This document shows positions 4,473-31,234 of a stretch of 64,000 bases of DNA, piece by piece (positions within the stretch are counted from its first letter, which is position 1; each line of letters begins with the position of its first letter). The DNA is from a virus: IMG/VR virus record IMGVR_UViG_3300027741_000040, positions 1 through 64,000 of that record. One strand, written 5' to 3'. Below the pieces are notes generated by a model, which made no database searches, was not told the origin of the DNA, and worked only from the letters and a program-made list of their open reading frames with translations. Made by a program: the position numbers and the translations under genes.

Positions 4473-4484
4473 AAGGATATTAAT

Positions 4485-4799
4485 ATGGCTCATTATGCAT
4501 TTTTAGACACAAACAATATGGTAACAGAAGTTATAGTTGGTAAAAATGAAAATGAAAATAATATTGATTGGGAACAGCATTATGGTGAATTTAGAGGACA
4601 AAAATGTAAACGAACTTCATATAATACGGTTGGTGGAGCTCATAACAGAGGTGGAGTTCCATACCGAAAAAATTATGCTGGAATAGGTTATGTTTTTAGA
4701 GAAGACATAAATGTTCCAGAAGGAGCTTTTGTTCCACCTTGTCCTGGTGAGGAATATGTTTTAGATGAGACTACCGGATTATGGATTATTCCGAATTAG
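4485..4799 (+). CDS. Conserved phage protein that typically follows glycine-rich fibre genes (possible fibre assembly factor)
   Basis: MAHYAFLD.NN.VTEVIVG...KRTSYNT...RKNYAGIGY motif; AAGGA RBS. Confidence 0.65.
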   Translation: MAHYAFLDTNNMVTEVIVGKNENENNIDWEQHYGEFRGQKCKRTSYNTVGGAHNRGGVPYRKNYAGIGYVFREDINVPEGAFVPPCPGEEYVLDETTGLWIIPN

Positions 4800-4834
4800 C
4801 CATTTAATTTAAAATTCTATGCCCTTCACTATAA

Positions 4835-14363: not shown

Positions 14364-14648
14364 ATGACACAAATAGACAAGATCATAGCAGATATTGAAA
14401 CAAAATTTAAAACAACCATGATTGGTTCTTTGGCTAGGTTTGAAGAGTCTTTTGGACATCTATGGGAGGAAGAAGGCCCAGATCAACAAGAATATTTGGA
14501 CCTTTGGGAATATACCAGAAATTCAGTACTGAATAATGGTAATAAGCAAATGAGAGCGGCAGTTAATGATATATCCAATACTTTTTTAAACTCACCAAAA
14601 TCTAAAGTTACCTATAGATTTAATTACAGGAACGAAGGAGATCAATAA
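14364..14648 (+). CDS. Hypothetical protein (94 aa)
   Basis: Tightly packed ORF in the tail operon. Confidence 0.6.
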   Translation: MTQIDKIIADIETKFKTTMIGSLARFEESFGHLWEEEGPDQQEYLDLWEYTRNSVLNNGNKQMRAAVNDISNTFLNSPKSKVTYRFNYRNEGDQ

Positions 14649-14649
14649 T

Positions 14650-15546
14650 ATGAAGACTAAGACTTTTACCGGAGTGGTTGATGGCAAGGATAGAGAATTT
14701 CTAGTTAAGTCACCATCACTAAATGACCAAAGAGAAGCTCAAAAAGTTTATAATCAGGCTTTTACAGATGCTATTAAGAGCAAGAGTGTAGTAAGAGCCA
14801 AGCTAGATGATCTGCTACAAGATCAAGGACTATGGAACGATGAGAAACAGGCTAAGTTTACATCTTTACAAAGAGATCTTTTAGACGGAGAAAAGAGGCT
14901 TGCTAAGGGCGGATTTAGTTTGAATGAGGCCAAAGACCTTGCTATTAAAATGAAAGCCGTACGAGATGAAATCAGAGACCTTATCAGTGTTCGTACCTCT
15001 CTAGACAACCATAGCGCAGAAGGCCAAGCAGATAATGCTAGATTTAATTATTTAGTTAGTGTTTGTGTGGTGTATAATGATACTAAACAGCCATATTTTA
15101 GAGACATGGAAGACTACCTTAATAGGGCTGCTGAACCAGTTTCGTTATCGGGCGCTCAGAATTTGGCTAATATGTTATATGGTTTGGATAATGATTATGA
15201 AAAGGGTCTGCCAGAAAATAAATTTCTGAAAAAGTATAATTTTGTTGATGACAAACTAAGACTAATTGATAAAAAGGGCAGACTTATTGATAGTGACGGT
15301 AGACTTATTGATGATAGTGGCAGGTTTATTGACGAGGAAGGGAATTTTGTTGATAAGTACGGCAATAGAGTAAACTTAGAGGGTGATTATGTTGTTGATA
15401 CTAAACCATTTTTAGACGATAATGGAAACCCAATCCTGGACCAAGAAACTAATGATAAACCTTCTACAGACAACAAATCAGAAACTAGTGCAGAGCCAGT
15501 TGTGGCCGATGTTGCAAAAGCTGAAGTCCCTAGCGTTGTCTCATAG
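14650..15546 (+). CDS. Putative tail assembly chaperone with C-terminal 7-aa RLIDxxG repeats
   Basis: GAAGGAG RBS; immediately upstream of the TMP; paralog of 13332-14348. Confidence 0.55.
   Translation: MKTKTFTGVVDGKDREFLVKSPSLNDQREAQKVYNQAFTDAIKSKSVVRAKLDDLLQDQGLWNDEKQAKFTSLQRDLLDGEKRLAKGGFSLNEAKDLAIKMKAVRDEIRDLISVRTSLDNHSAEGQADNARFNYLVSVCVVYNDTKQPYFRDMEDYLNRAAEPVSLSGAQNLANMLYGLDNDYEKGLPENKFLKKYNFVDDKLRLIDKKGRLIDSDGRLIDDSGRFIDEEGNFVDKYGNRVNLEGDYVVDTKPFLDDNGNPILDQETNDKPSTDNKSETSAEPVVADVAKAEVPSVVS
15241..15435 (+). repeat. Coding 21-bp/7-aa tandem repeats (R/N-L/F-I/V-D-x-x-G)
   Basis: RLIDKKG RLIDSDG RLIDDSG RFIDEEG NFVDKYG NRVNLEG. Confidence 0.85.
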
Positions 15547-15637: not shown

Positions 15638-18600
15638 ATGACAGCAGCATTCAATTTAACAGCTCAATTGAATTTGAAAGGCCCAAGTAATATTGGGTCT
15701 ATAACATCGTCTATAAAAAAACAACTTGGTACAATTACTGCTAATGTTGACGTTAAGGTTAATGCTACCTCAATACAAAAAATTAGTCAGCTTAATGCTG
15801 GATTACAACAACTTAACAAGACATTATCGGCAACAACAGTTAGTGCAACATCTGCTGCCTCTGCTATTAAAGGATTAGGTCAGGCTTTTGGTGCTGTTAA
15901 TTTGAGTAGTTTGCCACAACAAATTTCAGCCACTTCAACAGCCCTAGGTCAAGTAAAGGGCCAGTCCGCTCAAGCTGCTAAAGCACTAGCTGCTTCAACT
16001 ACACAGATGGAAGAATTTGGCAAACAATCAGCATTAGCTGTTAGAAGATTTGCTGCTTTTAGTATTGTTACATCTAGTATTTATGCTTTAAATAATAGTA
16101 TAAATAGAGGTATAGAAGCTTTTATCGAATATGATCAGCAGTTTGTCAAACTGCAACAGGTTACAGGACAATCAGCAGATGGTCTAAAGTCCCTATCTAA
16201 AGAAATTACAACATTATCTGTAGGACTTGGTGTGAGTAGTGCTGCTTTAACAGATGTTGCTAGTACTTTAGCTCAGGCTGGTTTAAGTGCTCAAGACACA
16301 GAGAAAGCACTTAAAGCACTAGCCTTAAGTTCATTAGCTCCATCATTTGATAGTATGAATGAGACTGTAGAGGGCAGCATTGCAATAATGAGACAATTTG
16401 GTATTAGTGCTGGTGGTCTTGAAGGAGCATTAGGATCTATAAATACCGTTGCTGCTAAGTTTGCTGTTGAAGCTAGAGACATAATTACTGCTGTTCAGCG
16501 TACCGGTGGTGTGTTTGCTACGGCCAGTAAAGGAGTTACTGAAGGTACAGATGCTCTTAATGAATTTGTTGCTGTTTTTACAAGTATCAGAGCAACAACT
16601 CGTGAAAGCGCTGAAACTATTGCTACTGGTTTAAGAACAATTTTTACTAGAATTCAAAGAGGATCAACAATAGATGCCTTAAAGGAATTTGGAGTAAATC
16701 TACAAGATACTGAAGGAAAATTTGTTGGAGCCTATAAGGCCGTGGAACTATTAAGTAAAGGACTAAGTAGTCTCGATCCTAGAGATGCTAAGTTCTCAAA
16801 AATTGTAGAAGAGCTTGGCGGCTTCAGACAGATAGGTAAGGTTATTCCTCTTATTCAACAGTTTTCCGTTGCTCAAAATGCTTTAAAGGTCGCACAACAA
16901 GGACAAGGATCATTAGCAAAAGACGCAGCAACCGCACAACTGTCTTTAGCAAATCAAATTCAAAAAGTTAGACAAGAATTCTTGGCGCTATTTAGAGAGA
17001 TGGGACAAAGCCAAGGGTTTCAGGTTATGGTCAAAGCAACCTTATCATTAGCCAGTGGTCTTATTAAGGTTGTTAATGCTAGTAAGGGACTGCTTCCTCT
17101 TTTGGGCGTAATGTTAGCATTTAAGGGAGCTAGTGCCATAACTCAATTTGCTAGCGGTTTTGGCCAAGGACTAAAACCAGGAGCGGGCAAAAAAGACAGA
17201 GAAAAACCATTGTTCTCTCAAGGTGGTCCCGTAAGAGCCTTTGCTACCGGTGGCGTTGTACCAGGAAGCGGAGACGGAGACACTGTTCCCGCAATGTTAA
17301 CTCCTGGAGAATTTGTTATTAAAAAGCAAGCTGTTAAAGCTATTGGAGCTAATAAATTACATAGTATAAATAGATATGCTACTGGTGGTAAAGTTAAAGA
17401 TTTAGTTAATGATCCTAATGGTAAAAAATCTCTTAAAAAAGTCTATGATATAAATCAAGATTTTGATAGTTATGAAGATCCTACAATAGATAGAGTAGAC
17501 TTGGACAAAACATATGATCAGTATACACAACAATCTAAACAGATTTGGTTAGAAGCTAATAAAAAATACAAACAAGATTTAGCCGAAGGATACAAGCCCC
17601 AAAAAGGAGATATCCCCAAATTAGCAAATGCATATATAAAAAGAGAAACTGGTGGACTAGCTCAGAATCTTGGATTCAAAGAACTAAGAGAGCCTCAGAC
17701 AGCTAAAAAATTAAATAAAATTCGTGGAGCTTTAGCTGAAAATGAAGTTAAGAAAAGATATAAATTAGGAAATCCTCTCGCTTTACAAGATGGGGCTGAT
17801 TTTTATGATGCTAAAAATGAAAGATTCGTAGAAATCAAAAACCAGAAAAAACAATTAAAAGATTCTACTCTGATATCAAAAACATTACTAGCATTCGCTG
17901 CGAGAAAAGGTAACAAGTTAAATAATCAACCAGATCATGTTCCTAGTTTAAAAATTCTTGCTGTTGAAGCTCCAAGTCCAGATAAATACGATGAATTTGA
18001 AGAAAAAAAACTTGGTGGAGTAATTAATAAAAGAGCTGTGCGAGCTGTTGAATCTAAAACTTTTAAGAACATGAATCAATATGCTGGAGGTGGAGCAGTA
18101 GTAGTTAGAGATAGAGCAAACACAGATGACACCACAAAGCTAGATGAAGGTCTAGGCCAAATGGTGAATCAAGCATCTAGACAGTTTGGTAAAAAGGGAG
18201 CTCCTAAATTTATAAATGCCAAAGACATGCCAGGGTATCAAGCTATCAAAGGACATGTATTTGAAGAAGGATTGCGAATAGCTGGAGCATCGGCAGCAGA
18301 TAGTGCTGCTAATGCAGATTTTGATTATAATCCATGGTCTGGTAATAAGTCTTTTAGTAAACTTCCAGTATCAAAAACACCAATTGTAGACGCAAAAGCA
18401 TCTCTAGGTTCGGCCAGTAAAGCAGAGTTTATTAAAAAAATTAGTAATTTTAGACAGAAGAATCCAAACGATAATACCACAAATTTCGGCGCGGCAATAT
18501 TTGAAAATGAAAATGAAAAAGGAGGAGATCCAGAAGATATAAAGATTTCTGCAAAAGAAATAGCAGCATACGGCCAAAGTAAAAATAGTGGTGGTTTGAT

Positions 18601-21600
18601 CCAAAGATTTATTGATGGTGGCTGGGTTAAAAGAATGCAGCAGCAGTCACCAAAAGACCTTAACAAGGAACTGGATTTACTCGATTCTACATTAGACTTA
18701 TTTGGTTTTCAAAGAAAGGTTCCAATTAGCACATTTAGTAAATCGGCACCTTTTATGGAAGATGCGGGAATCAAAGAAGTTAGAGAAAGAATATCTGCCA
18801 TCAAAGAGTTTCTAGCTAGTAAAGAACCACAAAAAAAGAAAAAGACTGAGAAAGAAATAACTTTACCCAAAGCTCCATCTGGCATTTCTGATTATCTTAG
18901 GTCTTTAATTGAAAAAAATAAAATATATGATATAACAAACCAGTATGATGGTATTGTTAATCAAGCACTAAATGCAGCATATAAGGGAAATTTGGGACCA
19001 GGAAATAAACAACAGAATATGGATAAGGTTGGACCAAAAAGTATGGTTCGTTTCGCTCCGGACAGAGAATATATTGATGTATCTTTGGGTTCACTAGAAA
19101 AAGACATTCAATATATTGATAAAGTTAAAAAACTAAAGGGAGAAGATTCCGAAAGACTAGCTGCTAACAAAGGCTATACCGTTAGCGATATGTTAGATAC
19201 CGTTAGGGCATATCAGGCGATAGGTTTAGATGCAGCTATTAATACTGCTCTTGGCAGGAAAGATGACTTGAGTCAGTCATTAGCCGATACGTCAGATTTG
19301 AATAAAACAGAGAGGAAAAAGCTTGGTCCAGCAGTAGATCAGCCACTATCTTATTTTGTTGGATCATTAGATGCCGCCATGCAATTTTCATTACCAGAAA
19401 AATTATATAGTGGTATAGGAGCTAGTAAACAAAAACTATTTATAGAATCAGCTGGCGTAAAAATTAATAAACTAGAAGATACCAAAAAACTAGTTGGAAA
19501 AACTGTTAGCATACCTTCTTTCTTATCTACTTCAGAAGTACTAGATACAGCAGAAAGCTTTGTAAGAACAGGCATGATGACCATAGAAACAAATAAAAAA
19601 GCCAAAGGATTAAATCCAGAGAGAGCCAAGACAGATACGATTAACAGAGATAAATCAAAAATAAGAAAAATGGACCAGAGGCTCATTAGCGATTCTTTTG
19701 TCAAAGGCAAAGCCGATGAAAGTTTTGCTGACGATTATGATATCGAATCAGAATATATTCTACCAAGAAATTCTAAATTTAAAGTAAAAAACATAGAAGC
19801 TAAGGACAACAGTGAAGAAGGCGGAAATATTCTTGAATCGCTCAATATGGATTGGGCTGTAAAAATGTTAAATCGTGGAGGGAAAGTACAAAAATTTGTA
19901 GACGGTGGAGTAGCTCAACGAAAAGTTGGATATATTGATTATGATGTTATAGCTAATGAAACTAATAAAGATATTGTAGAAAAAGGCATGGAAGCAACTG
20001 GGCAAAAGGGTCCTAGACTATATACAGATTACCTAACGCAGCTTGCTGTTAGAGCACGAAAAGATAATAGTTTACAAAAACTAAGAGCAATATACGGAGT
20101 AGCTGGTAGTGGTAAAACAACACTAGCACGAGGTCAAGGAACAGACAATGCTACATTGCGCAAAACCGACAGATTTCCAGTACTATCTCCAGAAGATATT
20201 CAAAAAGCTACCGAAATATTAATACTAACTAGTAGCGTAAGTCAAACTAAAATGGATGATTTTTTTAGTGATGTTGATAGAGCATATACATTAAGTTCGA
20301 CTACTGACGCAGAAAGACAGGGAGTAAGGAGTAGAAAAGAATCAAGAGACATTACAGGTATTGGTTTAGAGAATCGCAAACCCGGAACTACTATGGGAGT
20401 TTCAACAGATAGTGCTGTTGGCGAAGCATTATTATCAGATAAGCTAGGATCAAAATCTACAGTATTAGGACGAAGTGATTCTGGCAGACTAAGAAGAAAG
20501 AGAGGAAATGAATTAGTAGACATTATCAAGAAGAGAATTGGTTTCACATGGGGTGGTTTTTCTCCCATGACAGCCGGTCATGAAAGCATCATGGAAGCAG
20601 CATCGGCTATGGGTATTCCTCCAGAAGATTTTATATATTTGGTTGGAGCAAATGAAGGAATTACTGATGATAAGGCATCAAGTTTCCGTACTGCAATTTT
20701 TGATCAGGATGCGAGAGTATTATTAGCTAAAGCTGGGGCTGGAGCAAAAGGAGCGACAGTATTACCAAAACCAAGAGACTTTGAAGTTCCACAAGCTTTT
20801 GATATTTCGCCGGAAAGTGGTCGTAGAAAAGTATTAATACCAGGAAAGGGTAGTACAGCATTTGTAGCAGATAAAACAGCAAAAGATTTAGAAAAATATA
20901 CATCTGCAGGATATAGCACAGTCAATTTGGAAAGATATGGCGGGATCAGCGGTACCATGGTTAGAGATTTAATAGCAGAAGGAAATCTTGGAGAATTACA
21001 GAAAATATTAAGCCCAGGAGTATATGATTTAATTTCTAATAATATTGGTAGGATCCAAAATAGAGCTAAAATTCTTCCAACAATAGTAGCAGATGTACAA
21101 AAAAGTCAGACTGTTAAACTCAAAGATGTAGAATCTGAAATTAAAGCAATTGGTATCAGTAGAATAGACCAAAAGAAAATGGACGATCCAGAATATGCAG
21201 CAAAAGCAGAAATATTATTGGATCTTAGAGAAAAGAAAAAGAAGATCCAAACTGCCGGATCTTTTGAACCATACAAATTATTAGATGCTTTAGCCCAAAA
21301 AGACCCTCAAAACTACGCCCTAGATTTCTCTTCACCAACAACTATGGCTAATGTTCCAGATATGAGAGTTATGGGACAAGGCCCACAAGCTCCTGAAGCT
21401 CCTATGCCAGTTGGTAGAGTTGCTCAATTAGCTCAAGAAAAAAATAAAAGTATTCAAGATGTTATACTAGAACAACTAGGAGGTTTGGGTGGTCCTGCTG
21501 GGGTTAAGAAAATACTTGGTATCGGTAGTGGAGATAGAACACTAAGCTCATTATTGCAAGCAGGAAATATTAAAGGTGGCAAAGGCTTAGAACAAGCAGC

Positions 21601-24600
21601 AGACTATGTTAATAGAGCATTAGCGGCTAGGGGAATAAGAGATGCTGCCGAAGCTAAAAGATTAGAAGAATATCAAGCTAAGGCTCTTCATTTTGGTATT
21701 GCCGGATTATTACCAATGGATTACTCAAAAGAATTTGAGTGGGATATTGGTGGTACTAGTGTTTACGCTACTGCTAGAGGTTTTGGTAGCGCATATTTGG
21801 AAGAAGCAAGACAAATGCAGAATGAGTCTTCAGCATTAGCTCAAAGATTTGCAGAAAATATACAAAATAAAAATATCTTTGGCGGTGGTGAAAGACTAGC
21901 TTTTGATTTCGATAAAACTTTAGTTGAGGATGCAGATATTCTCGATGCTAAGGGCAACCCTGATATTAAAAAATATGCAAATAGAGATGCTGTACAGCAG
22001 GCTCTCCAGAACGCAAGACCAACCAGACTAGCAGTTAAATTAAAATCTCTAATAGAACAAGATCCTCCATTTATTAAGAAAACCAGAATACTAACAGCTA
22101 GACCACAAAGCACAGCAGACCTTCTTGCTCAATCATTACAAAGTTTTGGTCTACCATATTCTGAACAAGATATTACAGGAGTTAGTGGTGGAGCTAGCAG
22201 CAATATTGCGGTATTAAAAGCTGCTAATTTACAACAAGAAGAAAAACTTATTGATGATAATTTAGAAAATATTATGGCTGTTCGCAAAGCTGGAAAAAAA
22301 GGTTTTCAGTACATAGAACCCAAGCCTACAACATCAGAATTAGATGAGAAAATGGGCCAGGGTAATATTGAGGGCGCCGTAGTAGAAAAAGCTTTGGCTG
22401 TATTAGGTGCTCCTGTAAGACCAAATGCTAAACAGAATAGAGCTATAGACTATCCTGATGGCTTAGGCAGTGCTGCCCAATTCTTTCCTGGTATTGATCC
22501 TGGTATTCCAACGGAAGTTAAAAGAACAATTGATGGTAGTAGTTTAGAAAAAGTTAGAGAAGAAATTGGAAGATATATAACAGGGGGAGCCGAAGCTGTT
22601 AAACTAGCTAGGGGAGGAGCTGTTCAAAGCTTTATGGCTGGTGGTAGGGCAGCTCCTCAGTCTCCGCCTAGAAAGTTTGCTGATGGCGGGTTAGTTCCAG
22701 GAATAGGTAATCAAGATACTGTTCCAGCAACTCTTAATGTTGGTGACTTTGTTATTAGAAAAAAAGCAGTAGAAACGATTGGGGTTTCTAAATTAGCAGG
22801 AATGTCAAGATATGCTAGTGGAGGTTCTGTAGATAAGGTTCCTGCTTTATTAACTCCTGGAGAGTTTGTTTTTAATAGACAGTCTGCACAGAAAATAGGA
22901 TATAATAAATTACATCAATTAAATCATGCTGATAAAATAGCGGGATATAATAATGGAGGAATGGTAGGAGGAGTTCAAGGATATGCTTCTGGAGGCGCTG
23001 TTACCATCAATAGCGCAATAGAAGATCTCATAACTTACCTTGCAAAAGGTATGAAGGCTACATCAGAAGCTAATCCTCCAAAACTAGTAGCTAGACCAGA
23101 TATTGTTGGTCGAGCAACTTTACAAGTTTCTGATAAAACAGTAGAGGTCATTAAAGCAATTAGTAAAGAACTTAACGATCTTGGTGTTAGTGTAAGTCAT
23201 GTTGCAGAATTAATGAAGATTGGTGGGGATATCAGCTATAAAGCCATGGAAAAGGCTATTAAAAAAGATATTGAAAGAATGACAATCGCTGGTGCCTCTA
23301 TCGAACAGCTTAGTAAAGCAGAAAGTACATTAGCAGTAGTTAGAACAGAAAGAATAGAAAATCTCAAGAAAACTCAAACATTAGAAGATAGTTTTAGAAA
23401 TTCTAGTATTGGTCAAAAATTTGGTTCGGGAGGAGCACAACAACAGATAATATCAGAATCTGACAGATTAGAAAAACTGATTGAAAATAAAAAGATAAAA
23501 GATATATCAAAAACATTAAATACTGGTCCTGGTGGTATGCTAGGAGCATCTTCGGAGGATATTAGAAAGAAAGCTACAGAGCTAGCGTCATCTCCGGAAG
23601 AGAAGGCTAAAACTAAACAATCGGCATATATTACGGCCGCAGCAAAAGTAACAGGAGTTAAAGTGTCTGATTTTAAATCTGCTGAGTTATCAGGAGCAGA
23701 TATTCAGAAATATATTGCTGAATCCATGAGAGATCGAAAAACTTTGGCAGATATGGACAAACAACTTATTGCTTTAAGAATGGAGGAATATAAGAACGTC
23801 AGTACTGTTAGAGGAATTTCTGTAAATTCAGCAAAAGAAGCAAGAGCACTAGCCGATGAAGAAGTGTCACAAAGAAGAGGAATTATTGATGACTTAGCTA
23901 GCGCCCAAGGAGAAGAGGGTGTCGGACCATCAGGAATCTGGGATTTGGCGAATAGCGTGATTGTTAAAAAACTACAAGGACTTACTCCGAGCGATTATAT
24001 TAATGGAGGAGCAACTATTGCTGGTTTTATGAGTGGCAATGGAAATGCTATTGCTCAAAATTTCTATGATACCAGCGATCAAGGAAGAATAGGAGCAGCT
24101 AGAACAGGAGCCGCTATTTCTAGCGCCGGAACAATTGCTAGCACAGGCTTAGGAATAGCTGCTCAAAGTTTGGCTCTTGGTCCTATTGGTCCTGTTGTTG
24201 CTGGTATTGTGGCTGCTGGAACTGGTATTCTTGCTTTAACCGATAGTATTTATGATTTTACCGGATCACAAGAAGCTGCTGTTAAAGAAGTAGAGAAGTC
24301 TCTTAGAGCAACTGAAATTAATGCAGCAACCGCTAGTTTAGATGATGCTTTTAAGAAATTTGAAAATGATATGAGTAATATTGATCTTCAAGAAGCTCTT
24401 AATAATGCATTATCTAATTCTGTAATGGCTCAGGCCAAAGATACTAGTGCTAATATTGATCAAGCAAAAGAAGACTATGCTTATCAAAATAGAAGTTGGG
24501 GAGACCTATTAAACTTTGATTTAGGTGGCAGCGCTCAGATGGATGCTGTTGAATTAAAAGAAGTTAATAGGGTAGAAGCAGAACGTTTTGCTCCTTTGGC

Positions 24601-27600
24601 AGATAAGGCGTATAAACAAATTCAAAACGAAATTAATGGCAATGCTTCTATAGAACAAATTATGAGCAATGACAAATTGCGTGGCGCTAGAGCAGCTATT
24701 GCGATGAGTACACCTGAGGGTATTTCAGAATATACGGCACAAAAAGCAGCAGAAGAGAAAGCCACCGGAAAACCAATTACTGAAGACGCACGCCAAGCAA
24801 TAATTGATGAAATAGCTGCTCGAAAAATTTCTACTAATGAATTTATCATATCATCAATCAAGGCTAAAGAAGTTGCTGATGCATTAGAGATGGCAAATTT
24901 GGCAGGACGAAAATTGGCACAAAGTTTTCAGAGACTATATGACAGTATTGATCAGGCTATTAATAAAAATAATTTTAATATTCAACAGAGAAAGACAAGT
25001 ACTGATTATTCTACTGGTGCCCTATCGGGAAATGCAGTTACTCCAGAACTTAATTCAAAAAATATTAATATACTAGATAATCCAAAAGCATATTCTACAA
25101 AAGAATTTAATAGTGCTATTAATGTTGCTTCTCAGTCATTACCAGCAGAAGACGCAGCAATGATAAAAGGTGCTGCTACATTACAAAGAAATTTAGCACC
25201 AGCCATAGAAGCAGAACTTAGAAAAACTTTGAGAACAGACGCTGGACTAACAGCAGAAGACGCAGCAAAACAAGCAAAAGAAATAGGAACAGCACAGGTT
25301 AAAGCCAAAGGTCTCCCTGTAGAAATGGAAGAAGCTATAATTAATCAACTTAATGCTTCTATAGATGCTAAAGTACAAGACGATAAGGTACAAAATGAAT
25401 TCAAAAACAGCCCTCAAGCTGCCACAGACAAATTTATTGAGAGTATTAGAGAAGCATCAGATACTATTATCGAAAATGCTGGTAAGGGAGGTATTGATAC
25501 ACTTAAGAAGTTGCTATCTTCTAGACAAGATATTTTTAATGATTTTGGGAAGAATTTAGCCAAATCCTCCGCTTTCCTTAAGCAGCATGCAGAATCTCTT
25601 GTTAAAGCTAAAAATATTATTGGTGATGCTAAGATGAATCTTAGAGAAGCATTAACTGGTGTTGGTGAGACTTTTGCTGAAGCTAAAGCCCGTTTTGATT
25701 CGGAAATATCTGATCTTACTGGGGGAATAACTGATCCTAAAGCGATCCGCGCAAATATACAAAATCTAGAGAAAAAAGGGGCAGCTCTTGTAGAACAAAG
25801 AAAGAATACTGATGATGAAGCTGCTATTGCAAAATTTACCACAGAAATTAATAAAACTAATGATGCTATTAACAATAATAGAGAAGGACTAGAAAGATTA
25901 GCTAATAGTTCTGAATTGGCAGCAAAAGCACTAGGTGAAGTTACTAAGATTAGAGATCTACAAAAAAATAGATCCGAAGTAGTTAACAAATTATTAACAC
26001 AAACTCCAGAAGAAGCCCAAAAGCTCAATGACACGTTTGTTAGACTGCAGAATAATTTAAGTGGAGGATTAAATACAGGAGCTAATTCTAGAGCGGCCAG
26101 AGAAGCTTTTAGTCAGGCTTTGCGAAGTGGAAGTTCATTACAAGGAGCATATCGAGCAGGAAATAGTGTTCTTGCACAACAGAGGCAAGAAACATTAGCA
26201 ATGTTCCAAGATCCCAATATTAGGGGTGCTCAAAAACTAGAGATGAAAAATCAGGCTATTCGACAAAACAAAACCTTATCAGACGAGCAGATAGAGGATA
26301 TATTAAATCAGCAAGAAGCCCAGCTAAAAACACAAATGGCCATAGAAACAGGACAAATCAATAATCCTATGGTTAGGGCAGATATTGAAGCAACCAAAAA
26401 TAGAAAATTTGATCCAGCCGCTGCACAAGCTGCTGACGAATATAATAAAATCACTAACAGACAGGCTAATGCTAATACTGAAATTGGAGGACTAGCATTA
26501 GTACAAAGTAGGCTAGTTAAATCTAACGATGAACTGAAAATAGCACTAGAGGGATTGACGTTAGAGATTCAAAATGCCAGAGGATTTGATGCCAAGGTAG
26601 AGGGCGGGAAAATGGGCGCTGCCGCTGCCGTAGCTGCCGGAAAAGGAGCTACTGTTGGAGCATCTCCTGCCGGAGGAAATGGTCCAAGGACCGTATACGC
26701 TAGCACGGGAGCTTTAATTAATTTTGAGCCAAAAGGAACAGATACTGTTCCTGCAATGTTGACTCCTGGCGAATTTGTTATTAATGCTAGATCAACAGCT
26801 GAACATCTTCCATTATTACAGGCTATTAATAATAGCAGGGGTGGGAGTATTGATGGATTTTCTAATGGTGGAATAGTTTATGCCCAAAAAGGGATACTGG
26901 TGCCAACGAAGAGAGAAACATCCCTTTCTGCTGATTATACCAGACTGTCTCGGGTTCAGCAGGGCAATATTACCGTGCGAGGAGATGAGTTAACAAGAGG
27001 ATCATATCGCGCTACCCTCGACCCTAGCGTTGTTATTCATCGAGCCATCAGTCCTGTTGGCGCTCCGGGGTATGATGGCAGTTCGTCTTCTGATGCTGTG
27101 CGCAATCCGGGCACTCCGTCGAGAACACAGGCGAAGGAACAAGCAAAAGCGAAGGACGCTGGTTACAATGCTATGGCTGAACGAATTCGTGCGGCACGTT
27201 CAACCGGCATAGGAGATGCTCCTAAAGTGTCATCGCTCGCACAACAAATGATGTATCTCCCAAACGGCAAGGTTAGACCTGTCCCAAGCAGAGAGATGCT
27301 TGACAAGTGGTCAGACATCGACGCACAGGCTGGCAGGAAGCGGCAGGACGGTGGTCATATTGCCGTACCGCCAGCTACACAGCCAGCGCCAGCCAAAGAT
27401 GCTGCTCAAACTCGACAAGCAGCACCCAACTCAAACAAAACTATGCAAAAGCCCATTCAGTGGGGTGGGTTTGGTTTCGGTTCTACACCGACGCCTGCTC
27501 CTGTCGGCGGTGAGTCACAGGTAGACAAGGCTATTAAACTGTTGCGGGCATTGAATCTGGGTGGAGACGCAAGTAAAAAAGAGTCTCAGGCTACAGACGA

Positions 27601-30600
27601 AGGTCAAAGAGAGCCAAAAACTAAGACCTCAGGATCAAAAGTAAAAAAATCTGAACAAACCTTCTTTGGTGGCACTCCATCGCAGATGGCTTCTCCTAAA
27701 TTTTCATTACCTTGGTTGTCTGCTGGTTCTAATTTTCCAAAACCGCGTAATATGGCTGAAATACAAATGTACAAAGAAGGCTTGTCTCGTGGTATGACAA
27801 TCCAACAGGTAAGAGACGAAAGAATACAAGCTTATAGATCAAGATTTCCATCAAGGAAAAATAATAGACAAACACAGAACTCTCAGGCTCCTTTTGGTAA
27901 TCTTAGTATATTTGGTTTTTCTGGTCTCTCCACCCTAAGTGGAGGAGAAGCAACATCAAAACCCAGCTATGACACTACTAGAACCAATAGTCCTCTTCTT
28001 CGTCCTCCAAAAGAACAAGCTAAAGTAATAAAAGAAGAAGCTAAACAGGCTCAAGAGCCATTAGCAGCAGCGCCCTCATTACCAGTAGCAGCAGCGCCCT
28101 CATTACCAGTAGCAGCAGCGCCCTCATTACCAGTAGCAGCAGCGCCCTCATTACCAGTAGCAGCAGCGCCCTCATTACCAGTAGCAGCTGGTTTAGACAG
28201 AGAAAAACAAAGAAATTTAGATCTAGCATATGAAAATATGGCCGAAAGAAGTAGGGCAAAGATTTTAGAGACCATAGGCCAAGAAGGAGCTTGGGATGTT
28301 AATGCTTATGATACTGCCTACCGCAGATTAATGAGATCTGGAACACCAACAAAAGAAAGATGGACGACAGAACAATTTAGACAAGCGGTTGAAAAAGAAT
28401 TATCTGGAATGTCTCCGGAATATGCTCGTAGACAATGGAAAGGAGTTACCCCATCTACCCACTATACTCAAAGTCCAGAATATAAGGCTAAACAGGAAAA
28501 AAAAGCCAAAGACAGAGAAGTTAAAGGACCATATGCTCCTGGATTACCTGGAGCAATAGACAAAGCTGCCGACCAGGTAATGACTGGAGTTGTATTACCT
28601 ATTACCGAAACTGTCGCTGGAGCTGCTACTGTTCTTAGATCTGGTAGTGGACCAGAGATGGACAAAAAATTAAAAGAAAACAGAGAAGCCTTAGGTGCTG
28701 ATGCTAGATTAGCTGAAGACGAAAAGAGAAAATTAATAGGAACAGATAAGAGTATTTTTGGAGGTAATGTTGGAGACAAGGTCTATTCTAAATTTTTACA
28801 GTTGCCTATTGGACAACAACAAGAATACCTAGATCTGAGAAAACGCGCTCAAACTAAAAAAGGACTTAGACAATCTGAAGCAGCTGATCTTAAAGAATAT
28901 ACTAGATTAGACTATTTTCAAAAAACTTTGGAAGTTCCATATCAGCAAAGAGAAAGAATTCCAACAGGTTATGAGTCTGACGTTAAAGACCCTGCGGCAA
29001 GCAAAAAATCATCCGATAAAATGACAGATATGAGAGATCTTCGTGCTGCTACTCCTTTATTAGGTAGTCGTAAGTATGTGGAAGGATTGCCAGCAGCTTT
29101 TGAAGAAGGAGCAACACTAGGAACAGTTTTGACTAAAGAATCTAGTGCTTATGGAGACAGAGCAACAGAAACAGTTGGTGGAACAGGACAAGTTGTTACC
29201 GGAACAGCCAAAGTAGGCTTTGGTTTAAGTGCGGCTGCATTAGCAGATAGAGTTGGTATGACCGGACTAGCATCTCCTAAGATAGTAAAAGCCTTGAAGG
29301 ATTCTTTTCTCGAAACAGCCAGATTAGGAGGTACTCAGGTTCAGTTAGGGGCATCAAAATATGGCAAAAATGCAGGTGTAGATTCAGCTTTAGCTATGGT
29401 TTATGGAGAAAGCTCTCCTCAAGCAACTTTTTATGCTGATCAACAAAAAGTTCAACAAAAACAATTTGATACTACTTTCCAAAAACAAAAAGCACAAGCC
29501 GAAGCTTTAGCTCCTGGATTCGGAACAAGCTACGAACGAGCAGAGAACTTATCTCAAGCAGCATATGGCGCAGCGACCACAGCGGCCATGCAACAGGTTG
29601 CTGTTGGGGCATTTACAAAACCTTCTATGTCTCCAGCAAAAACATTCACTCCAGCAGAAAATGCGGCTCGCTCCGGAACCAATCAAAAATTAAATGATGT
29701 ATTTACTGGAAAAAAACAGATAGTTCGCCCGTCGATAGATATAGAGCCAGAATTTAATAAGTTTTTAAAACGCCCAATTGTTGGAGAGCTCCCACCTCCA
29801 CAAGATATGGCACTAGATAGATTTTTAAAGCGCCCAATTATTGGAGAGCGTCCCTCTATTTCAAGTCCAGAACTAGATCAATTTTTGGGACGTACTGCAC
29901 AAACACCAGTAAATCCACAACTTCAAAACATACGATGGGCCATGCCGCGCAAGCCGGGATCGGCGGTATGGAACCAGCCATCCAAACCATCATCATGGAA
30001 TGGAGCTTCGCAGCCGTCACCAGGTCCTGTTACGAAACAATTGGAAAGGCTCCCACGAGTTCGGGCTGTCAAGAACTATACGAATAAGTATGGAAACCCA
30101 TCTGAAGATTCTGATTTAGTTATACGAAAACAATTAGACATATCACGACGTCAGAATGTCAGAAGGTTTATGAATGGGGAAAATGATGTTGGAGCTCCTA
30201 TTGATTCAACTCCTAGCGTTTCTTCAACAGGCACTACATTCCCTTCTGCTTCTCCAGCAGTATTCCCAAGGCCACAGATAGCAACACCTAGTGAGCCATT
30301 GTTTCCAACCCTTACAAAATGGGGTCGATCACTTAAAAGTTTAGCTGGTGGTATATGGAATATATCGACACCAGGGAATATTTTCTATACGGGTGGTAGC
30401 AGTGCTTCCCTTAGATATTTATTATCTGGAGGAGGTGAGCAGCAGGATAAACCACAGACAAAGAAAGTAAAGAGACCACAAAGAAAAGCAAATGTAGGTA
30501 TGATATCTACTGGATATACTGCTGAAGGAAAACTAGTCCCTTTATCCTTTGGTCCTACAGCTAAATATTCCACAGGAGGGATAGTATATGCAAATAACGG

Positions 30601-31234
30601 AGCACTAATAGAGACCCGTTCACAAGGAACAGACACCGTTCCCGCCATGTTAACTCCTGGTGAATTCGTTGTGAACAGAGCATCCGCACAAGAACATATG
30701 CCATTACTACAAGCTATTAATAATAGAAATTATGAAAGCGGCGGGTTAGTAAAGTATATGGCTCAGGGAGGTGTTGTTACTCCTCAATATAAGGATGTAG
30801 GAGGAGCTATCGGCAGCTTAGCATCCTCAAGTATTTTGGGTGCTGGACTAGACATGGGAGCGATTAGCGAACTAGCAAAAGAATTACCAAGACTCAAACA
30901 AGCATTTGGGTCATTTGAGAAATTATCAGAATTTACACAAAGTTTTGATAAACTTACACAAAATATGGGTACTAATTTAACCGGATTTGCGGAAACAGTA
31001 GCCAATATGCCAAGACAGATGGAGCACTCTCTAAAAGCTATTGTTAATGGCACTATTAATAGCAATATTCCTGGTGCTACCACTCAAATAGTTAATAGTA
31101 GACATGAGGCTCAAATAGTTTATGACCAAAATAATCAAAGACTAGACAGAGCCAGCGAAGGGGCTTTTTCACGATCAGATCCAGCAATCATGAGAGGAAC
31201 AAGTGGTGCCGGAGGCACTCGTTCTAATGCATAA
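15638..31234 (+). CDS. Giant tape measure protein (5198 aa) with embedded enzymatic cargo domains
   Basis: N-terminal TP901-type TMP core (FIEYDQQFVKLQQVTG...LAQAGLS...ETIATGLRTIFTRI...EELGGFRQ), long helical A/E/K-rich regions, and hydrophobic segments near 17030-17165 and 24090-24245. AGGA RBS; canonical position after the chaperone-like genes. Confidence 0.9.
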   Translation: MTAAFNLTAQLNLKGPSNIGSITSSIKKQLGTITANVDVKVNATSIQKISQLNAGLQQLNKTLSATTVSATSAASAIKGLGQAFGAVNLSSLPQQISATSTALGQVKGQSAQAAKALAASTTQMEEFGKQSALAVRRFAAFSIVTSSIYALNNSINRGIEAFIEYDQQFVKLQQVTGQSADGLKSLSKEITTLSVGLGVSSAALTDVASTLAQAGLSAQDTEKALKALALSSLAPSFDSMNETVEGSIAIMRQFGISAGGLEGALGSINTVAAKFAVEARDIITAVQRTGGVFATASKGVTEGTDALNEFVAVFTSIRATTRESAETIATGLRTIFTRIQRGSTIDALKEFGVNLQDTEGKFVGAYKAVELLSKGLSSLDPRDAKFSKIVEELGGFRQIGKVIPLIQQFSVAQNALKVAQQGQGSLAKDAATAQLSLANQIQKVRQEFLALFREMGQSQGFQVMVKATLSLASGLIKVVNASKGLLPLLGVMLAFKGASAITQFASGFGQGLKPGAGKKDREKPLFSQGGPVRAFATGGVVPGSGDGDTVPAMLTPGEFVIKKQAVKAIGANKLHSINRYATGGKVKDLVNDPNGKKSLKKVYDINQDFDSYEDPTIDRVDLDKTYDQYTQQSKQIWLEANKKYKQDLAEGYKPQKGDIPKLANAYIKRETGGLAQNLGFKELREPQTAKKLNKIRGALAENEVKKRYKLGNPLALQDGADFYDAKNERFVEIKNQKKQLKDSTLISKTLLAFAARKGNKLNNQPDHVPSLKILAVEAPSPDKYDEFEEKKLGGVINKRAVRAVESKTFKNMNQYAGGGAVVVRDRANTDDTTKLDEGLGQMVNQASRQFGKKGAPKFINAKDMPGYQAIKGHVFEEGLRIAGASAADSAANADFDYNPWSGNKSFSKLPVSKTPIVDAKASLGSASKAEFIKKISNFRQKNPNDNTTNFGAAIFENENEKGGDPEDIKISAKEIAAYGQSKNSGGLIQRFIDGGWVKRMQQQSPKDLNKELDLLDSTLDLFGFQRKVPISTFSKSAPFMEDAGIKEVRERISAIKEFLASKEPQKKKKTEKEITLPKAPSGISDYLRSLIEKNKIYDITNQYDGIVNQALNAAYKGNLGPGNKQQNMDKVGPKSMVRFAPDREYIDVSLGSLEKDIQYIDKVKKLKGEDSERLAANKGYTVSDMLDTVRAYQAIGLDAAINTALGRKDDLSQSLADTSDLNKTERKKLGPAVDQPLSYFVGSLDAAMQFSLPEKLYSGIGASKQKLFIESAGVKINKLEDTKKLVGKTVSIPSFLSTSEVLDTAESFVRTGMMTIETNKKAKGLNPERAKTDTINRDKSKIRKMDQRLISDSFVKGKADESFADDYDIESEYILPRNSKFKVKNIEAKDNSEEGGNILESLNMDWAVKMLNRGGKVQKFVDGGVAQRKVGYIDYDVIANETNKDIVEKGMEATGQKGPRLYTDYLTQLAVRARKDNSLQKLRAIYGVAGSGKTTLARGQGTDNATLRKTDRFPVLSPEDIQKATEILILTSSVSQTKMDDFFSDVDRAYTLSSTTDAERQGVRSRKESRDITGIGLENRKPGTTMGVSTDSAVGEALLSDKLGSKSTVLGRSDSGRLRRKRGNELVDIIKKRIGFTWGGFSPMTAGHESIMEAASAMGIPPEDFIYLVGANEGITDDKASSFRTAIFDQDARVLLAKAGAGAKGATVLPKPRDFEVPQAFDISPESGRRKVLIPGKGSTAFVADKTAKDLEKYTSAGYSTVNLERYGGISGTMVRDLIAEGNLGELQKILSPGVYDLISNNIGRIQNRAKILPTIVADVQKSQTVKLKDVESEIKAIGISRIDQKKMDDPEYAAKAEILLDLREKKKKIQTAGSFEPYKLLDALAQKDPQNYALDFSSPTTMANVPDMRVMGQGPQAPEAPMPVGRVAQLAQEKNKSIQDVILEQLGGLGGPAGVKKILGIGSGDRTLSSLLQAGNIKGGKGLEQAADYVNRALAARGIRDAAEAKRLEEYQAKALHFGIAGLLPMDYSKEFEWDIGGTSVYATARGFGSAYLEEARQMQNESSALAQRFAENIQNKNIFGGGERLAFDFDKTLVEDADILDAKGNPDIKKYANRDAVQQALQNARPTRLAVKLKSLIEQDPPFIKKTRILTARPQSTADLLAQSLQSFGLPYSEQDITGVSGGASSNIAVLKAANLQQEEKLIDDNLENIMAVRKAGKKGFQYIEPKPTTSELDEKMGQGNIEGAVVEKALAVLGAPVRPNAKQNRAIDYPDGLGSAAQFFPGIDPGIPTEVKRTIDGSSLEKVREEIGRYITGGAEAVKLARGGAVQSFMAGGRAAPQSPPRKFADGGLVPGIGNQDTVPATLNVGDFVIRKKAVETIGVSKLAGMSRYASGGSVDKVPALLTPGEFVFNRQSAQKIGYNKLHQLNHADKIAGYNNGGMVGGVQGYASGGAVTINSAIEDLITYLAKGMKATSEANPPKLVARPDIVGRATLQVSDKTVEVIKAISKELNDLGVSVSHVAELMKIGGDISYKAMEKAIKKDIERMTIAGASIEQLSKAESTLAVVRTERIENLKKTQTLEDSFRNSSIGQKFGSGGAQQQIISESDRLEKLIENKKIKDISKTLNTGPGGMLGASSEDIRKKATELASSPEEKAKTKQSAYITAAAKVTGVKVSDFKSAELSGADIQKYIAESMRDRKTLADMDKQLIALRMEEYKNVSTVRGISVNSAKEARALADEEVSQRRGIIDDLASAQGEEGVGPSGIWDLANSVIVKKLQGLTPSDYINGGATIAGFMSGNGNAIAQNFYDTSDQGRIGAARTGAAISSAGTIASTGLGIAAQSLALGPIGPVVAGIVAAGTGILALTDSIYDFTGSQEAAVKEVEKSLRATEINAATASLDDAFKKFENDMSNIDLQEALNNALSNSVMAQAKDTSANIDQAKEDYAYQNRSWGDLLNFDLGGSAQMDAVELKEVNRVEAERFAPLADKAYKQIQNEINGNASIEQIMSNDKLRGARAAIAMSTPEGISEYTAQKAAEEKATGKPITEDARQAIIDEIAARKISTNEFIISSIKAKEVADALEMANLAGRKLAQSFQRLYDSIDQAINKNNFNIQQRKTSTDYSTGALSGNAVTPELNSKNINILDNPKAYSTKEFNSAINVASQSLPAEDAAMIKGAATLQRNLAPAIEAELRKTLRTDAGLTAEDAAKQAKEIGTAQVKAKGLPVEMEEAIINQLNASIDAKVQDDKVQNEFKNSPQAATDKFIESIREASDTIIENAGKGGIDTLKKLLSSRQDIFNDFGKNLAKSSAFLKQHAESLVKAKNIIGDAKMNLREALTGVGETFAEAKARFDSEISDLTGGITDPKAIRANIQNLEKKGAALVEQRKNTDDEAAIAKFTTEINKTNDAINNNREGLERLANSSELAAKALGEVTKIRDLQKNRSEVVNKLLTQTPEEAQKLNDTFVRLQNNLSGGLNTGANSRAAREAFSQALRSGSSLQGAYRAGNSVLAQQRQETLAMFQDPNIRGAQKLEMKNQAIRQNKTLSDEQIEDILNQQEAQLKTQMAIETGQINNPMVRADIEATKNRKFDPAAAQAADEYNKITNRQANANTEIGGLALVQSRLVKSNDELKIALEGLTLEIQNARGFDAKVEGGKMGAAAAVAAGKGATVGASPAGGNGPRTVYASTGALINFEPKGTDTVPAMLTPGEFVINARSTAEHLPLLQAINNSRGGSIDGFSNGGIVYAQKGILVPTKRETSLSADYTRLSRVQQGNITVRGDELTRGSYRATLDPSVVIHRAISPVGAPGYDGSSSSDAVRNPGTPSRTQAKEQAKAKDAGYNAMAERIRAARSTGIGDAPKVSSLAQQMMYLPNGKVRPVPSREMLDKWSDIDAQAGRKRQDGGHIAVPPATQPAPAKDAAQTRQAAPNSNKTMQKPIQWGGFGFGSTPTPAPVGGESQVDKAIKLLRALNLGGDASKKESQATDEGQREPKTKTSGSKVKKSEQTFFGGTPSQMASPKFSLPWLSAGSNFPKPRNMAEIQMYKEGLSRGMTIQQVRDERIQAYRSRFPSRKNNRQTQNSQAPFGNLSIFGFSGLSTLSGGEATSKPSYDTTRTNSPLLRPPKEQAKVIKEEAKQAQEPLAAAPSLPVAAAPSLPVAAAPSLPVAAAPSLPVAAAPSLPVAAGLDREKQRNLDLAYENMAERSRAKILETIGQEGAWDVNAYDTAYRRLMRSGTPTKERWTTEQFRQAVEKELSGMSPEYARRQWKGVTPSTHYTQSPEYKAKQEKKAKDREVKGPYAPGLPGAIDKAADQVMTGVVLPITETVAGAATVLRSGSGPEMDKKLKENREALGADARLAEDEKRKLIGTDKSIFGGNVGDKVYSKFLQLPIGQQQEYLDLRKRAQTKKGLRQSEAADLKEYTRLDYFQKTLEVPYQQRERIPTGYESDVKDPAASKKSSDKMTDMRDLRAATPLLGSRKYVEGLPAAFEEGATLGTVLTKESSAYGDRATETVGGTGQVVTGTAKVGFGLSAAALADRVGMTGLASPKIVKALKDSFLETARLGGTQVQLGASKYGKNAGVDSALAMVYGESSPQATFYADQQKVQQKQFDTTFQKQKAQAEALAPGFGTSYERAENLSQAAYGAATTAAMQQVAVGAFTKPSMSPAKTFTPAENAARSGTNQKLNDVFTGKKQIVRPSIDIEPEFNKFLKRPIVGELPPPQDMALDRFLKRPIIGERPSISSPELDQFLGRTAQTPVNPQLQNIRWAMPRKPGSAVWNQPSKPSSWNGASQPSPGPVTKQLERLPRVRAVKNYTNKYGNPSEDSDLVIRKQLDISRRQNVRRFMNGENDVGAPIDSTPSVSSTGTTFPSASPAVFPRPQIATPSEPLFPTLTKWGRSLKSLAGGIWNISTPGNIFYTGGSSASLRYLLSGGGEQQDKPQTKKVKRPQRKANVGMISTGYTAEGKLVPLSFGPTAKYSTGGIVYANNGALIETRSQGTDTVPAMLTPGEFVVNRASAQEHMPLLQAINNRNYESGGLVKYMAQGGVVTPQYKDVGGAIGSLASSSILGAGLDMGAISELAKELPRLKQAFGSFEKLSEFTQSFDKLTQNMGTNLTGFAETVANMPRQMEHSLKAIVNGTINSNIPGATTQIVNSRHEAQIVYDQNNQRLDRASEGAFSRSDPAIMRGTSGAGGTRSNA
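17396..18004 (+). other. TMP domain: PD-(D/E)xK nuclease-like domain 1
   Basis: GALAENEV...DGADFYD...FVEIKN fits the E...D...ExK restriction-endonuclease-fold pattern. Confidence 0.55.
18095..18580 (+). other. TMP domain: PD-(D/E)xK nuclease-like domain 2
   Basis: KGHVFEEGL...ADFDY...IVDAKAS. Confidence 0.55.
19190..19860 (+). other. TMP domain: VIP2/Alt-like mono-ADP-ribosyltransferase
   Basis: VRAYQ...AINTAL, LYSG (normally LYRG), SFLSTS and ESEYILPRNSKFKV (ExE motif). Confidence 0.8.
20070..20500 (+). other. TMP domain: P-loop NTPase/kinase-like
   Basis: Walker A motif AIYGVAGSGKTTLAR at about 20087-20130. Confidence 0.7.
20530..21060 (+). other. TMP domain: HIGH-superfamily nucleotidyltransferase (CTP_transf_like; NadD/CoaD-type)
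   Basis: IGFTWGGFSPMTAGH (T/HxGH motif) and C-terminal ISGTMVRDLI...LSPGVYDLI (ISxTxxR motif). Confidence 0.8.
21890..22315 (+). other. TMP domain: HAD-superfamily phosphatase
   Basis: Motif I LAFDFDKTL, motif II ILTAR, motif III K, motif IV LIDDN. Confidence 0.8.
22350..22600 (+). other. TMP domain: PD-(D/E)xK nuclease-like domain 3
   Basis: IEGAVVEKAL...AIDYP...PTEVKRT. Confidence 0.5.
28062..28188 (+). repeat. Perfect 24-bp coding tandem repeat, about 5.3 copies (AAAPSLPV)
   Basis: GCAGCAGCGCCCTCATTACCAGTA repeated 5 times identically from 28064. Confidence 0.95.
29746..29895 (+). repeat. Degenerate 60-bp coding repeat, about 2.5 copies (FLKRPIxGE)
   Basis: EFNKFLKRPIVGELP / ALDRFLKRPIIGERP / ELDQFLGR at a 20-aa period. 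Confidence 0.8.

Follow-up and report, generated by a model that had tools for sequence, protein, structure and literature searches.

Tape measure proteins (TMPs) are the first phage proteins to enter the cell, and some of them carry enzymes. That enzymes are embedded in TMPs, that TMPs are cleaved and that phage genomes are mosaic is already known. The present report concerns the giant TMP encoded in a viral stretch of 64,000 nucleotides, positions 1 to 64,000 of the IMG/VR record IMGVR_UViG_3300027741_000040 (the window), and a short module that occurs five times in this protein. The modules are the places where homology between related TMPs starts and stops, and they form the borders of the cassettes by which these proteins differ. 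On balance we favor the view that the copies represent an ancient 'junction module', which orders the giant TMP and whose use as a crossover point makes the segments between modules, including the enzyme cargo, exchangeable cassettes.

Among the described systems, gpH of phage lambda loses a C-terminal piece of about 14 kDa by a cut in a Gly-rich region. It resembles the window TMP in profile homology, in the layout FATGG ... GEFV ... helix ... YATGG and in a Gly-rich hydrophobic stretch ahead of the module, as at copy 1. Unlike the window TMP, with its five copies delimiting segments, gpH contains one copy with a much diverged core, located within its gpHC fragment 68 residues from the C-terminus, and no cargo. 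The T5 protein pb2 (pb2*, pb2C) is cut between a hydrophobic stretch and an enzyme motif, and the enzymatic C-terminal part is then ejected. The same order is found in the window as core, hydrophobic helix, copy 1 and cargo, but pb2 has no detectable module and a single small cargo, and for the window TMP cleavage is only a putative step. The mycobacteriophage TMPs TM4 gp17 and Douge gp16 also contain extra functional motifs, with one copy of the module in TM4 and two in Douge; they differ from the window TMP in this small copy number, in their length of less than 1,700 residues, in lacking the 1-2-3-3 order of module classes reported below and any described exchange of cassettes at the module. 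Under the modular theory, related phages cross over at short conserved linkers that flank exchangeable modules at the mosaic junctions of their genomes. Whereas linkers of the classical kind are intergenic, the modules of the window are coding sequence within a single gene and are strongly selected at the peptide level. Polyvalent proteins (PMC5512222), which come closest as a concept for the cargo, are very large virion-delivered polypeptides with many effector enzyme domains and a proposed proteolytic release, but this release is attributed to built-in peptidase domains and not to a repeated short module; TMPs are mentioned nowhere in that paper (0 occurrences). For the cargo of the window we infer virion delivery from TMP biology. 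The module as a distinct TMP element, its grammar and its use in crossover were not found described in Pfam or in the literature searched.

Module copies, their order and the segment borders

The 13-residue core of the module reads DTVPAMLTPGEFV at residues 548, 3702 and 4999 (nucleotides 17279, 26741 and 30632), DTVPATLNVGDFV at residue 2360 (nucleotide 22715) and DKVPALLTPGEFV at residue 2399 (nucleotide 22832), the consensus being D-T-V-P-A-M-L-T-P-G-E-F-V. The full unit spans about 55-70 residues: an (F/Y)xxGG motif and a short variable spacer lead into the core, after which come a helix-turn-helix with the ending L..IN and another (F/Y)xxGG; every core is flanked on either side by (F/Y)xxGG and followed by the helix-turn-helix. 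With a profile made from the copies, each copy scores 67-100 bits, at domain E-values of 1e-22 to 3e-32. The motif was not found outside the TMP open reading frame (ORF) in a six-frame search of the 95.8-kb record, and chance is therefore excluded. At the DNA level the three identical 13-mers show 4-7 differences per 39 bases, nearly all at third codon positions, and the longest exact run common to any two copies in the window is 14 nt. Such synonymous divergence argues for purifying selection on the peptide and not for recent copying.

The motif scan reproduced exactly the five positions and sequences listed in an earlier note on this DNA, and the short helix described there after each copy corresponds to the helix-turn-helix, for which AlphaFold2 (AF2) places helices at residues 563-569 and 571-581 after copy 1. 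The same note had copies 1 and 2/3 flanking an enzyme block and copies 4 and 5 flanking a low-complexity insert. Both placements hold: residues 591-2345 contain a match to the ADP-ribosyltransferase family ADPrib_exo_Tox (residues 1200-1391, 22.8 bits, just below the Pfam cut-off of 23.4), and residues 3751-4975 contain a 24-nt tandem repeat of 5.5 units. That the modules bracket variable inserts is correct for these two segments, but a conserved block, taken to be helical, is bracketed as well. Enzyme motifs in the cargo other than the ADP-ribosyltransferase were seen by eye only, and no further effector domain has Pfam support.

Fifteen IMG/VR relatives and 29 metagenome loci have the N-terminal 590 residues in common with the window TMP, at 40-86% identity. 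The TMPs of the relatives are 2,433-6,560 residues long and contain 3-6 copies each. A tree of the copies consists of three classes defined by position and not by phage: first, second and later copies group separately, and copy 2 of the window is an extra class 1 copy. Because the three positional classes are common to all relatives, the multi-copy state is ancient and not the result of recent duplications; the multi-copy order is shown to predate the divergence of the giant-TMP phages. In a set of 162 giant TMPs the commonest orders were 1-2-3-3-3 (39 proteins) and 1-2-3-3 (38), together 77/162; the first copy belonged to class 1 in 145 proteins and the last to class 3 in 138. The median start of the first copy is residue 524, and a median of 145 residues separates the end of the last copy from the C-terminus. 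Class 1 copies come after the N-terminal core and its hydrophobic helix and class 2 copies after the cargo slot; every later segment terminates in a class 3 copy. Only first copies have a hydrophobic stretch upstream. No internal duplication of whole segments was found in the 162 proteins, which yielded only three weak paralogous matches. Copy number correlates better with total TMP length (rho 0.58) and with the length of the parts other than the cargo slot (rho 0.65) than with slot size, for which the relation is weak (rho 0.36); relatives with a 463-residue slot and with a 2,174-residue slot have five copies each. The correlation of copy number with cargo, set as a check in the earlier note, is thus a weak one.

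The conserved blocks in common with the relatives end at modules, the trailing GG of copy 1 and the leading GG of copy 3 being two of the limits. The N-terminal block in common with every relative ends at residues 579-626, at the end of copy 1 or just beyond it (mostly at 580-603), with the exception of G008, which has about 100 extra residues ahead of its copy 1. The second conserved block extends from residues 2389-2392, in the lead-in of copy 3, to residues 3747-3753, in the tail of copy 4, and the last starts at residues 4974-4978, in the lead-in of copy 5. With P0107, the closest relative, identity is 93% as far as residue 586; the sequences are then unrelated and match again at 68% and 65% in the later blocks; loci L041 and L049 (86%) show the same break pattern at the DNA level. 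When alignments among the 162 giant TMPs were restricted to those of at least 70% identity and at least 200 residues, 47% of the internal ends had a module within 10 residues in each of the two partners, where chance would give 1%. Over all pairs, 54.6% of internal alignment ends are within 30 residues of a module, against 15.1% expected.

G013 (loci L019 and L031) and G014 (loci L020 and L032), marine phages that are nearly identical, carry unrelated cassettes of about 290 residues between modules 1 and 2, neither of which has a Pfam match. Nucleotide identity between the two phages is 98-100% up to and including the core of module 1, 28-62% per comparison window over residues ~521-813 and again 93-100% from the core of module 2 onward. 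Megablast junctions in this pair lie 0-7 nt from modules 1-4, and in three further pairs the ends lie 0-20 nt from module 1. Within the cargo of the window, residues 988-1428 are 79% identical to P0015 and residues 1412-2338 are 79% identical to P0126, while the TMP cores are only 57% identical. Pfam searches of the inter-module segments of the relatives returned ADPrib_exo_Tox and EF-hand matches only. The statistics of the restricted set and the G013/G014 junctions inside modules bear out the expectation that indels between orthologues end at modules. The related proposal that modules are sites of cargo gain and loss stands in part: they border blocks exchanged between phages, but they are not recent duplications that opened insertion sites, as the three shared classes indicate. 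The segments of the TMP are listed in Table 1.

Table 1. Segments of the giant tape measure protein gene in the window (aa, residues)
Feature	Position (nt)	Strand	Remarks
TMP gene	15638..31234	+	5,198 aa; orthologues in relatives 2,433-6,560 aa
N-terminal TMP core, aa 1-533	15638..17236	+	42-93% identity in relatives
Hydrophobic helix, aa ~483-508	17084-17161	+	within N-terminal core; AF2 helix at aa 486-509
Module copy 1, class 1, aa 534-590 (core 17279-17317)	17237..17407	+	100.5 bits; clusters with first copies of relatives
Cargo slot / enzyme block, aa 591-2345	17408..22672	+	GG doublets at borders of sub-cassettes; slot length in relatives 216-2,182 aa
Module copy 2, extra class 1, aa 2346-2400 (core 22715-22753)	22673..22837	+	89 bits
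Module copy 3, class 2, aa 2391-2447 (core 22832-22870)	22808..22978	+	68.3 bits; clusters with second copies of relatives
Conserved long segment, aa 2448-3684, presumed helical ruler	22979..26689	+	collinear with relatives between copies 3 and 4, 26-71% identity
Module copy 4, class 3, aa 3685-3750 (core 26741-26779)	26690..26887	+	66.8 bits
Low-complexity insert, aa 3751-4975	26888..30562	+	mostly without homologue in compared giant TMPs
Module copy 5, class 3, last, aa 4976-5047 (core 30632-30670)	30563..30778	+	88.6 bits
C-terminal tail, aa 5048-5198, presumed tip plug	30779..31234	+	conserved with relatives

The conserved long segment has no Pfam match and is presumed to be a helical ruler, its helical character being deduced from composition only. 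The C-terminal tail is presumed to form the tip plug by analogy with the structures of lambda, T5 and Douge. Within the low-complexity insert only residues ~4181-4823 have a counterpart, in three of the compared giant TMPs (59% identity with G003, 45% with P0112). It contains two in-frame tandem repeats, one at 28058-28188 (24 nt x 5.5, 99% match, an eight-residue unit of the AAPSLPVA type) and one at 29757-29886 (60 nt x 2.2).

Distribution of the module

Profile A1, built from the window only, matched lambda gpH at residues 733-785 of 853 (PDB chain 8iyk_H, E 9e-5) and Douge gp16 (PDB chain 8zdo_S, E 3.5e-7) in two stretches, 964-1028 and 1412-1458. A reverse check of gpH with profile A2 gave 23.4 bits, and overall its scores are 23-25 bits. 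Pfam covers gpH at residues 54-256 and 627-701, the latter being PF09718 (Tape_meas_lam_C), upstream of the module. The four scanned module stretches of the window, which cover all five copies, gave only chance matches to Pfam at E<=10 and none to PF09718 even at that level. Since the lambda module lies outside TMP_2 and Tape_meas_lam_C and the copies of the window have no Pfam match, the module belongs to no Pfam family. PDB matches to the Atg8 family (E 0.6-1.8), due to a 12-residue likeness of the form VPA.LT.G.FV, were judged to be chance.

With a threshold of E<=1e-3 a profile of 44 copies matched 29,276 clusters in a search of 1.84 billion representative proteins, and at E<=1e-30 it matched 1,540. 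The proteins of the best 150 clusters are 2,289-7,872 residues long with 4-11 copies each, and 3-11 copies are present in hundreds of giant TMPs of uncultured phages. Proteins of less than 2,000 residues account for 7,667 matches, mostly PF10145 TMPs, typically with three copies. Among cultured phages, tblastn with copy 4 found 333 places in 333 records, nearly all in annotated tape measure genes, and tblastn with copy 5 found 256 places in 205 records. The hosts of the module-bearing phages range from Actinobacteria to Cyanobacteria. The statement in the earlier note that a similar motif usually occurs once near the C-terminus of TMPs is correct for ordinary TMPs, to judge from lambda gpH, from Shewanella phage S0112 (815-875 of 934) and from the one place per record obtained with copy 4. 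In Fionnbharth the module lies at 872-942 of 1,391.

Gene 011 of Synechococcus phage SynMITS9220M01, a T4-like cyanomyovirus (L069, 5044-7023), is annotated as a 'hypothetical protein' and lies beside baseplate hub genes. Its product, which is probably a tape measure of the gp29 type, contains a near-canonical module at residues 319-387 followed by a Hydrolase_2 cell-wall hydrolase domain. The cultured Nodularia phage vB_NspS-kac68v161 (145 kb; L070, 11265-21197) has a TMP of 3,310 residues with adjacent module copies at 891-960 and 978-1028. Its grammar differs from the giant-TMP order, and this phage is a possible laboratory model for multi-copy TMPs. In the RefSeq copies of many mycobacteriophage genomes the tape measure gene is called 'endolysin', while the GenBank originals have 'tape measure protein'.

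Role of the module and rival explanations

In this clade of giant TMPs the N-terminal core with its hydrophobic helix is followed by a class 1 module, the variable cargo slot, a class 2 module, the long conserved segment presumed to be a ruler and a class 3 module. Additional segments may come next, with a class 3 module at the end of each, and a C-terminal tail of about 145 residues completes the protein. In the mechanism proposed here, the conserved modules, with the N-terminal core as the other conserved part, would act as crossover points when related phages recombine, exchange taking place between phages at orthologous modules. As conserved crossover islands they would cause the segments between them, including the enzyme cargo, to behave as exchangeable cassettes. 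Going by the structure predictions, the module is most likely an element that folds on assembly and keeps either the TMP chains or a partner in register wherever two segments meet. By analogy with lambda, in which the cut falls just upstream of the module, and with T5, it may also be located at, or next to, the sites of cleavage that release the cargo from the giant TMP.

Several results weigh against this proposal or limit it. One G013/G014 junction is located 814 nt from any module. Borders of sub-cassettes within the cargo lie at GG doublets or at a proline-rich linker, without a module core; the doublets, xGGx(V/I)xx(F/Y)xxGG, resemble the module tail (nucleotides 18590-18625, 19877-19912 and 22583-22648; residues 985-996, 1414-1425 and 2316-2337). 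The junctions at modules could also be explained by illegitimate recombination followed by selection for functional chimeras, and not by crossover in the module. Local alignments in any case tend to stop at conserved islands, which inflates low-identity statistics; protein comparisons at >=70% and DNA comparisons at >=90% identity are less affected. As to the role of the element, the two short strands and helix-turn-helix predicted for it by AF2 are of low confidence, and the module is unresolved in both cryo-EM maps, in which only residues 818-849 of gpH and 1658-1699 of the Douge protein are modelled. T5 pb2 has no module by profile although it is cleaved, a stretch AEGG...GEHGTEVV being only visually alike, and no JAB or NlpC/P60 peptidase, as in lambda gpK, was found in the 66%-complete record of this phage. 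The biochemical role, whether processing signal or assembly clamp, is inferred.

Cargo might instead be gained and lost within one genome by recombination between paralogous copies acting as direct repeats, which we regard as unlikely. In its favor, the cargo is flanked by two class 1 copies, and the region of copy 2 (residues 2317-2392) is 50% identical to the region preceding module 1 in relative G005. In G008 (L025, 5088-5291 and 1776-1979, minus strand) two class 3 copies have 88% nucleotide identity and an exact run of 68 nt, whereas exact runs common to copies of one gene are usually 6-23 nt; as their flanks are unrelated, gene conversion between the copies is suggested. The copies of the window, however, have at most those 14 identical bases in a row noted above, and class identity by position is kept across all relatives. 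No deletion between paralogous copies within one genome was found among relatives and metagenome contigs, and no single module of hybrid class marking such an event was found; the difference between P0002 and P0012 is a block replacement and not a deletion. Contigs of four sequencing runs were placed on the TMP gene; the shares covered in runs X3 and X4 were small and carry no information on habitat. Those of two studies reproduce the arrangement of the window, and contigs identical to it span copies 1-3 without interruption, one of them covering 17077-22935 unchanged. The joints 17388 to 22241, 26785 to 30755, 17316 to 26727 and 16959 to 26741 were considered as deletions and rejected, as each occurs in a single contig, with 29-44 nucleotides on the short side and 85% likeness, and is out of register; they are best explained by related phages, for which such joints are typical, or by cross-mapping between paralogous copies. 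The precise between-copy deletions looked for following the earlier note are missing in register from the contigs of two studies, although this absence is weak evidence because only contigs were available.

A reading to which we give limited credence takes the module with its GG flanks as a processing signal: each copy would determine a proteolytic cut, made by a protease of host or phage origin or autocatalytically, and would owe its conservation to what the protease or the chemistry requires. On this reading the TMP is a polyprotein of core, cargo, ruler and plug, with the mosaic borders as a by-product. The mass reported for gpH*, about 78-79 kDa (78.5-79.6 kDa corresponds to residues 720-732), places the lambda cut at about 710-732, immediately before the module, which is preceded by a Gly-rich hydrophobic stretch (697-722). 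The T5 cut has the topology of copy 1, the cyanomyovirus protein has its hydrolase domain directly after the module, and any cargo destined for the cytoplasm would presumably have to be released from the part that forms the channel. Only D, A, L, G and V columns are invariant in 44 copies, however. The lack of any invariant Ser, Thr, Cys or His argues against a classical self-cleaving domain; the sole invariant polar residue in the clade is the Asp that opens the core, and the lambda copy lacks both the core Asp and the Asn. Asp is not on the usual list of Ser/Thr/Cys/His nucleophiles. With neither a Pfam match nor an invariant catalytic nucleophile or dyad, the module does not resemble self-cleaving domains such as Peptidase_S74. 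The state of T5 pb2 and the failure to find a gpK-type peptidase in the record count against processing too. We are somewhat more doubtful of the extended version, in which the module is a portable processing and hand-off signal that makes the TMP a programmable injected polyprotein: each copy would direct a cut or a controlled release, every cassette would be delivered as a separate protein and the same element would be the long-sought determinant of the conversion of gpH to gpH*. A purely structural role, without any part in cleavage, is a further possibility that we hold only tentatively: the module would be a clamp for trimer or hexamer registration or a peg to the tube wall, hub or chaperones, and repeats would be needed as non-helical inserts break the coiled coil. 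AF2 gave no compact fold for the module alone (57 residues, 44-sequence alignment, predicted local distance difference test (pLDDT) 60.6) or for residues 440-600 (24 sequences, pLDDT 53.2), a failure that fits an element folding on assembly or on a partner. Flexible GG hinges lie on either side, the module is found at every transition between unlike segments, work on DT57C suggests that the TMP is held in the tube by non-periodic contacts, and the TMP of TP901-1 requires the last 60 residues at its C-terminus, for which a short coil and a beta region have been described. The core of the module is nearly invariant across phages with very different tube, hub and chaperone proteins, which speaks against a phage-specific partner but not against self-association, and in neither the lambda nor the Douge map is the region ordered. 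It is very improbable that the copies are LysM-like units that bind peptidoglycan or envelope and anchor the ejected TMP in the cell wall. Size, the make-up of strand and helix-turn-helix, repetition, proximity to cell-wall hydrolase domains in some TMPs and conservation across hosts would agree with this, but no LysM or other binding-domain match was obtained at E<=10, and the AF2 models (pLDDT 53-61) lack a compact beta-alpha-alpha-beta fold, although AF2 usually predicts a compact fold for LysM.

Setting of the gene and significance

The gene translates as a single open frame, and PhageMin_Tail (PF10145) matches at residues 189-393 with E 7e-21 and 75.4 bits, against a gathering score of 33.2. 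Downstream, ORFs of 1,817 and 1,729 residues match tail PHROGs and fn3, lectin-like and RCC1 domains and are fibre-like. The product is a giant TMP. The ORFs upstream of the TMP have no family match. Two small ones lie directly upstream (14364-14648 and 14650-15546), where tail assembly chaperones are expected; they have no PHROG match and no Pfam match above cut-off, with one borderline match to She9_MDM33 (22.0 against 22.2 bits). The window is the first 64 kb of its source record, which is judged to be 66% complete. The identical TMP sequence was found in freshwater metagenomes of two different studies of 2017 (contigs with 0 differences, runs X1 and X2). Assembly chimerism of the multi-copy TMP genes is unlikely, because two studies and 15 independent assemblies are concordant.

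The module is a very widespread TMP element, carried even by lambda, around which giant TMPs are built with a fixed grammar, and related phages trade the segments between modules, including the cargo slot that bears the ADP-ribosyltransferase. This bears on how TMPs accommodate, exchange and release large cargo. With it, giant 'hypothetical' TMPs can be parsed in their thousands by a simple rule, and there are defined borders at which the TMP cargo of laboratory phages might be engineered or swapped. The module is also a concrete candidate, testable in lambda, for the unmapped determinant of gpH cleavage.

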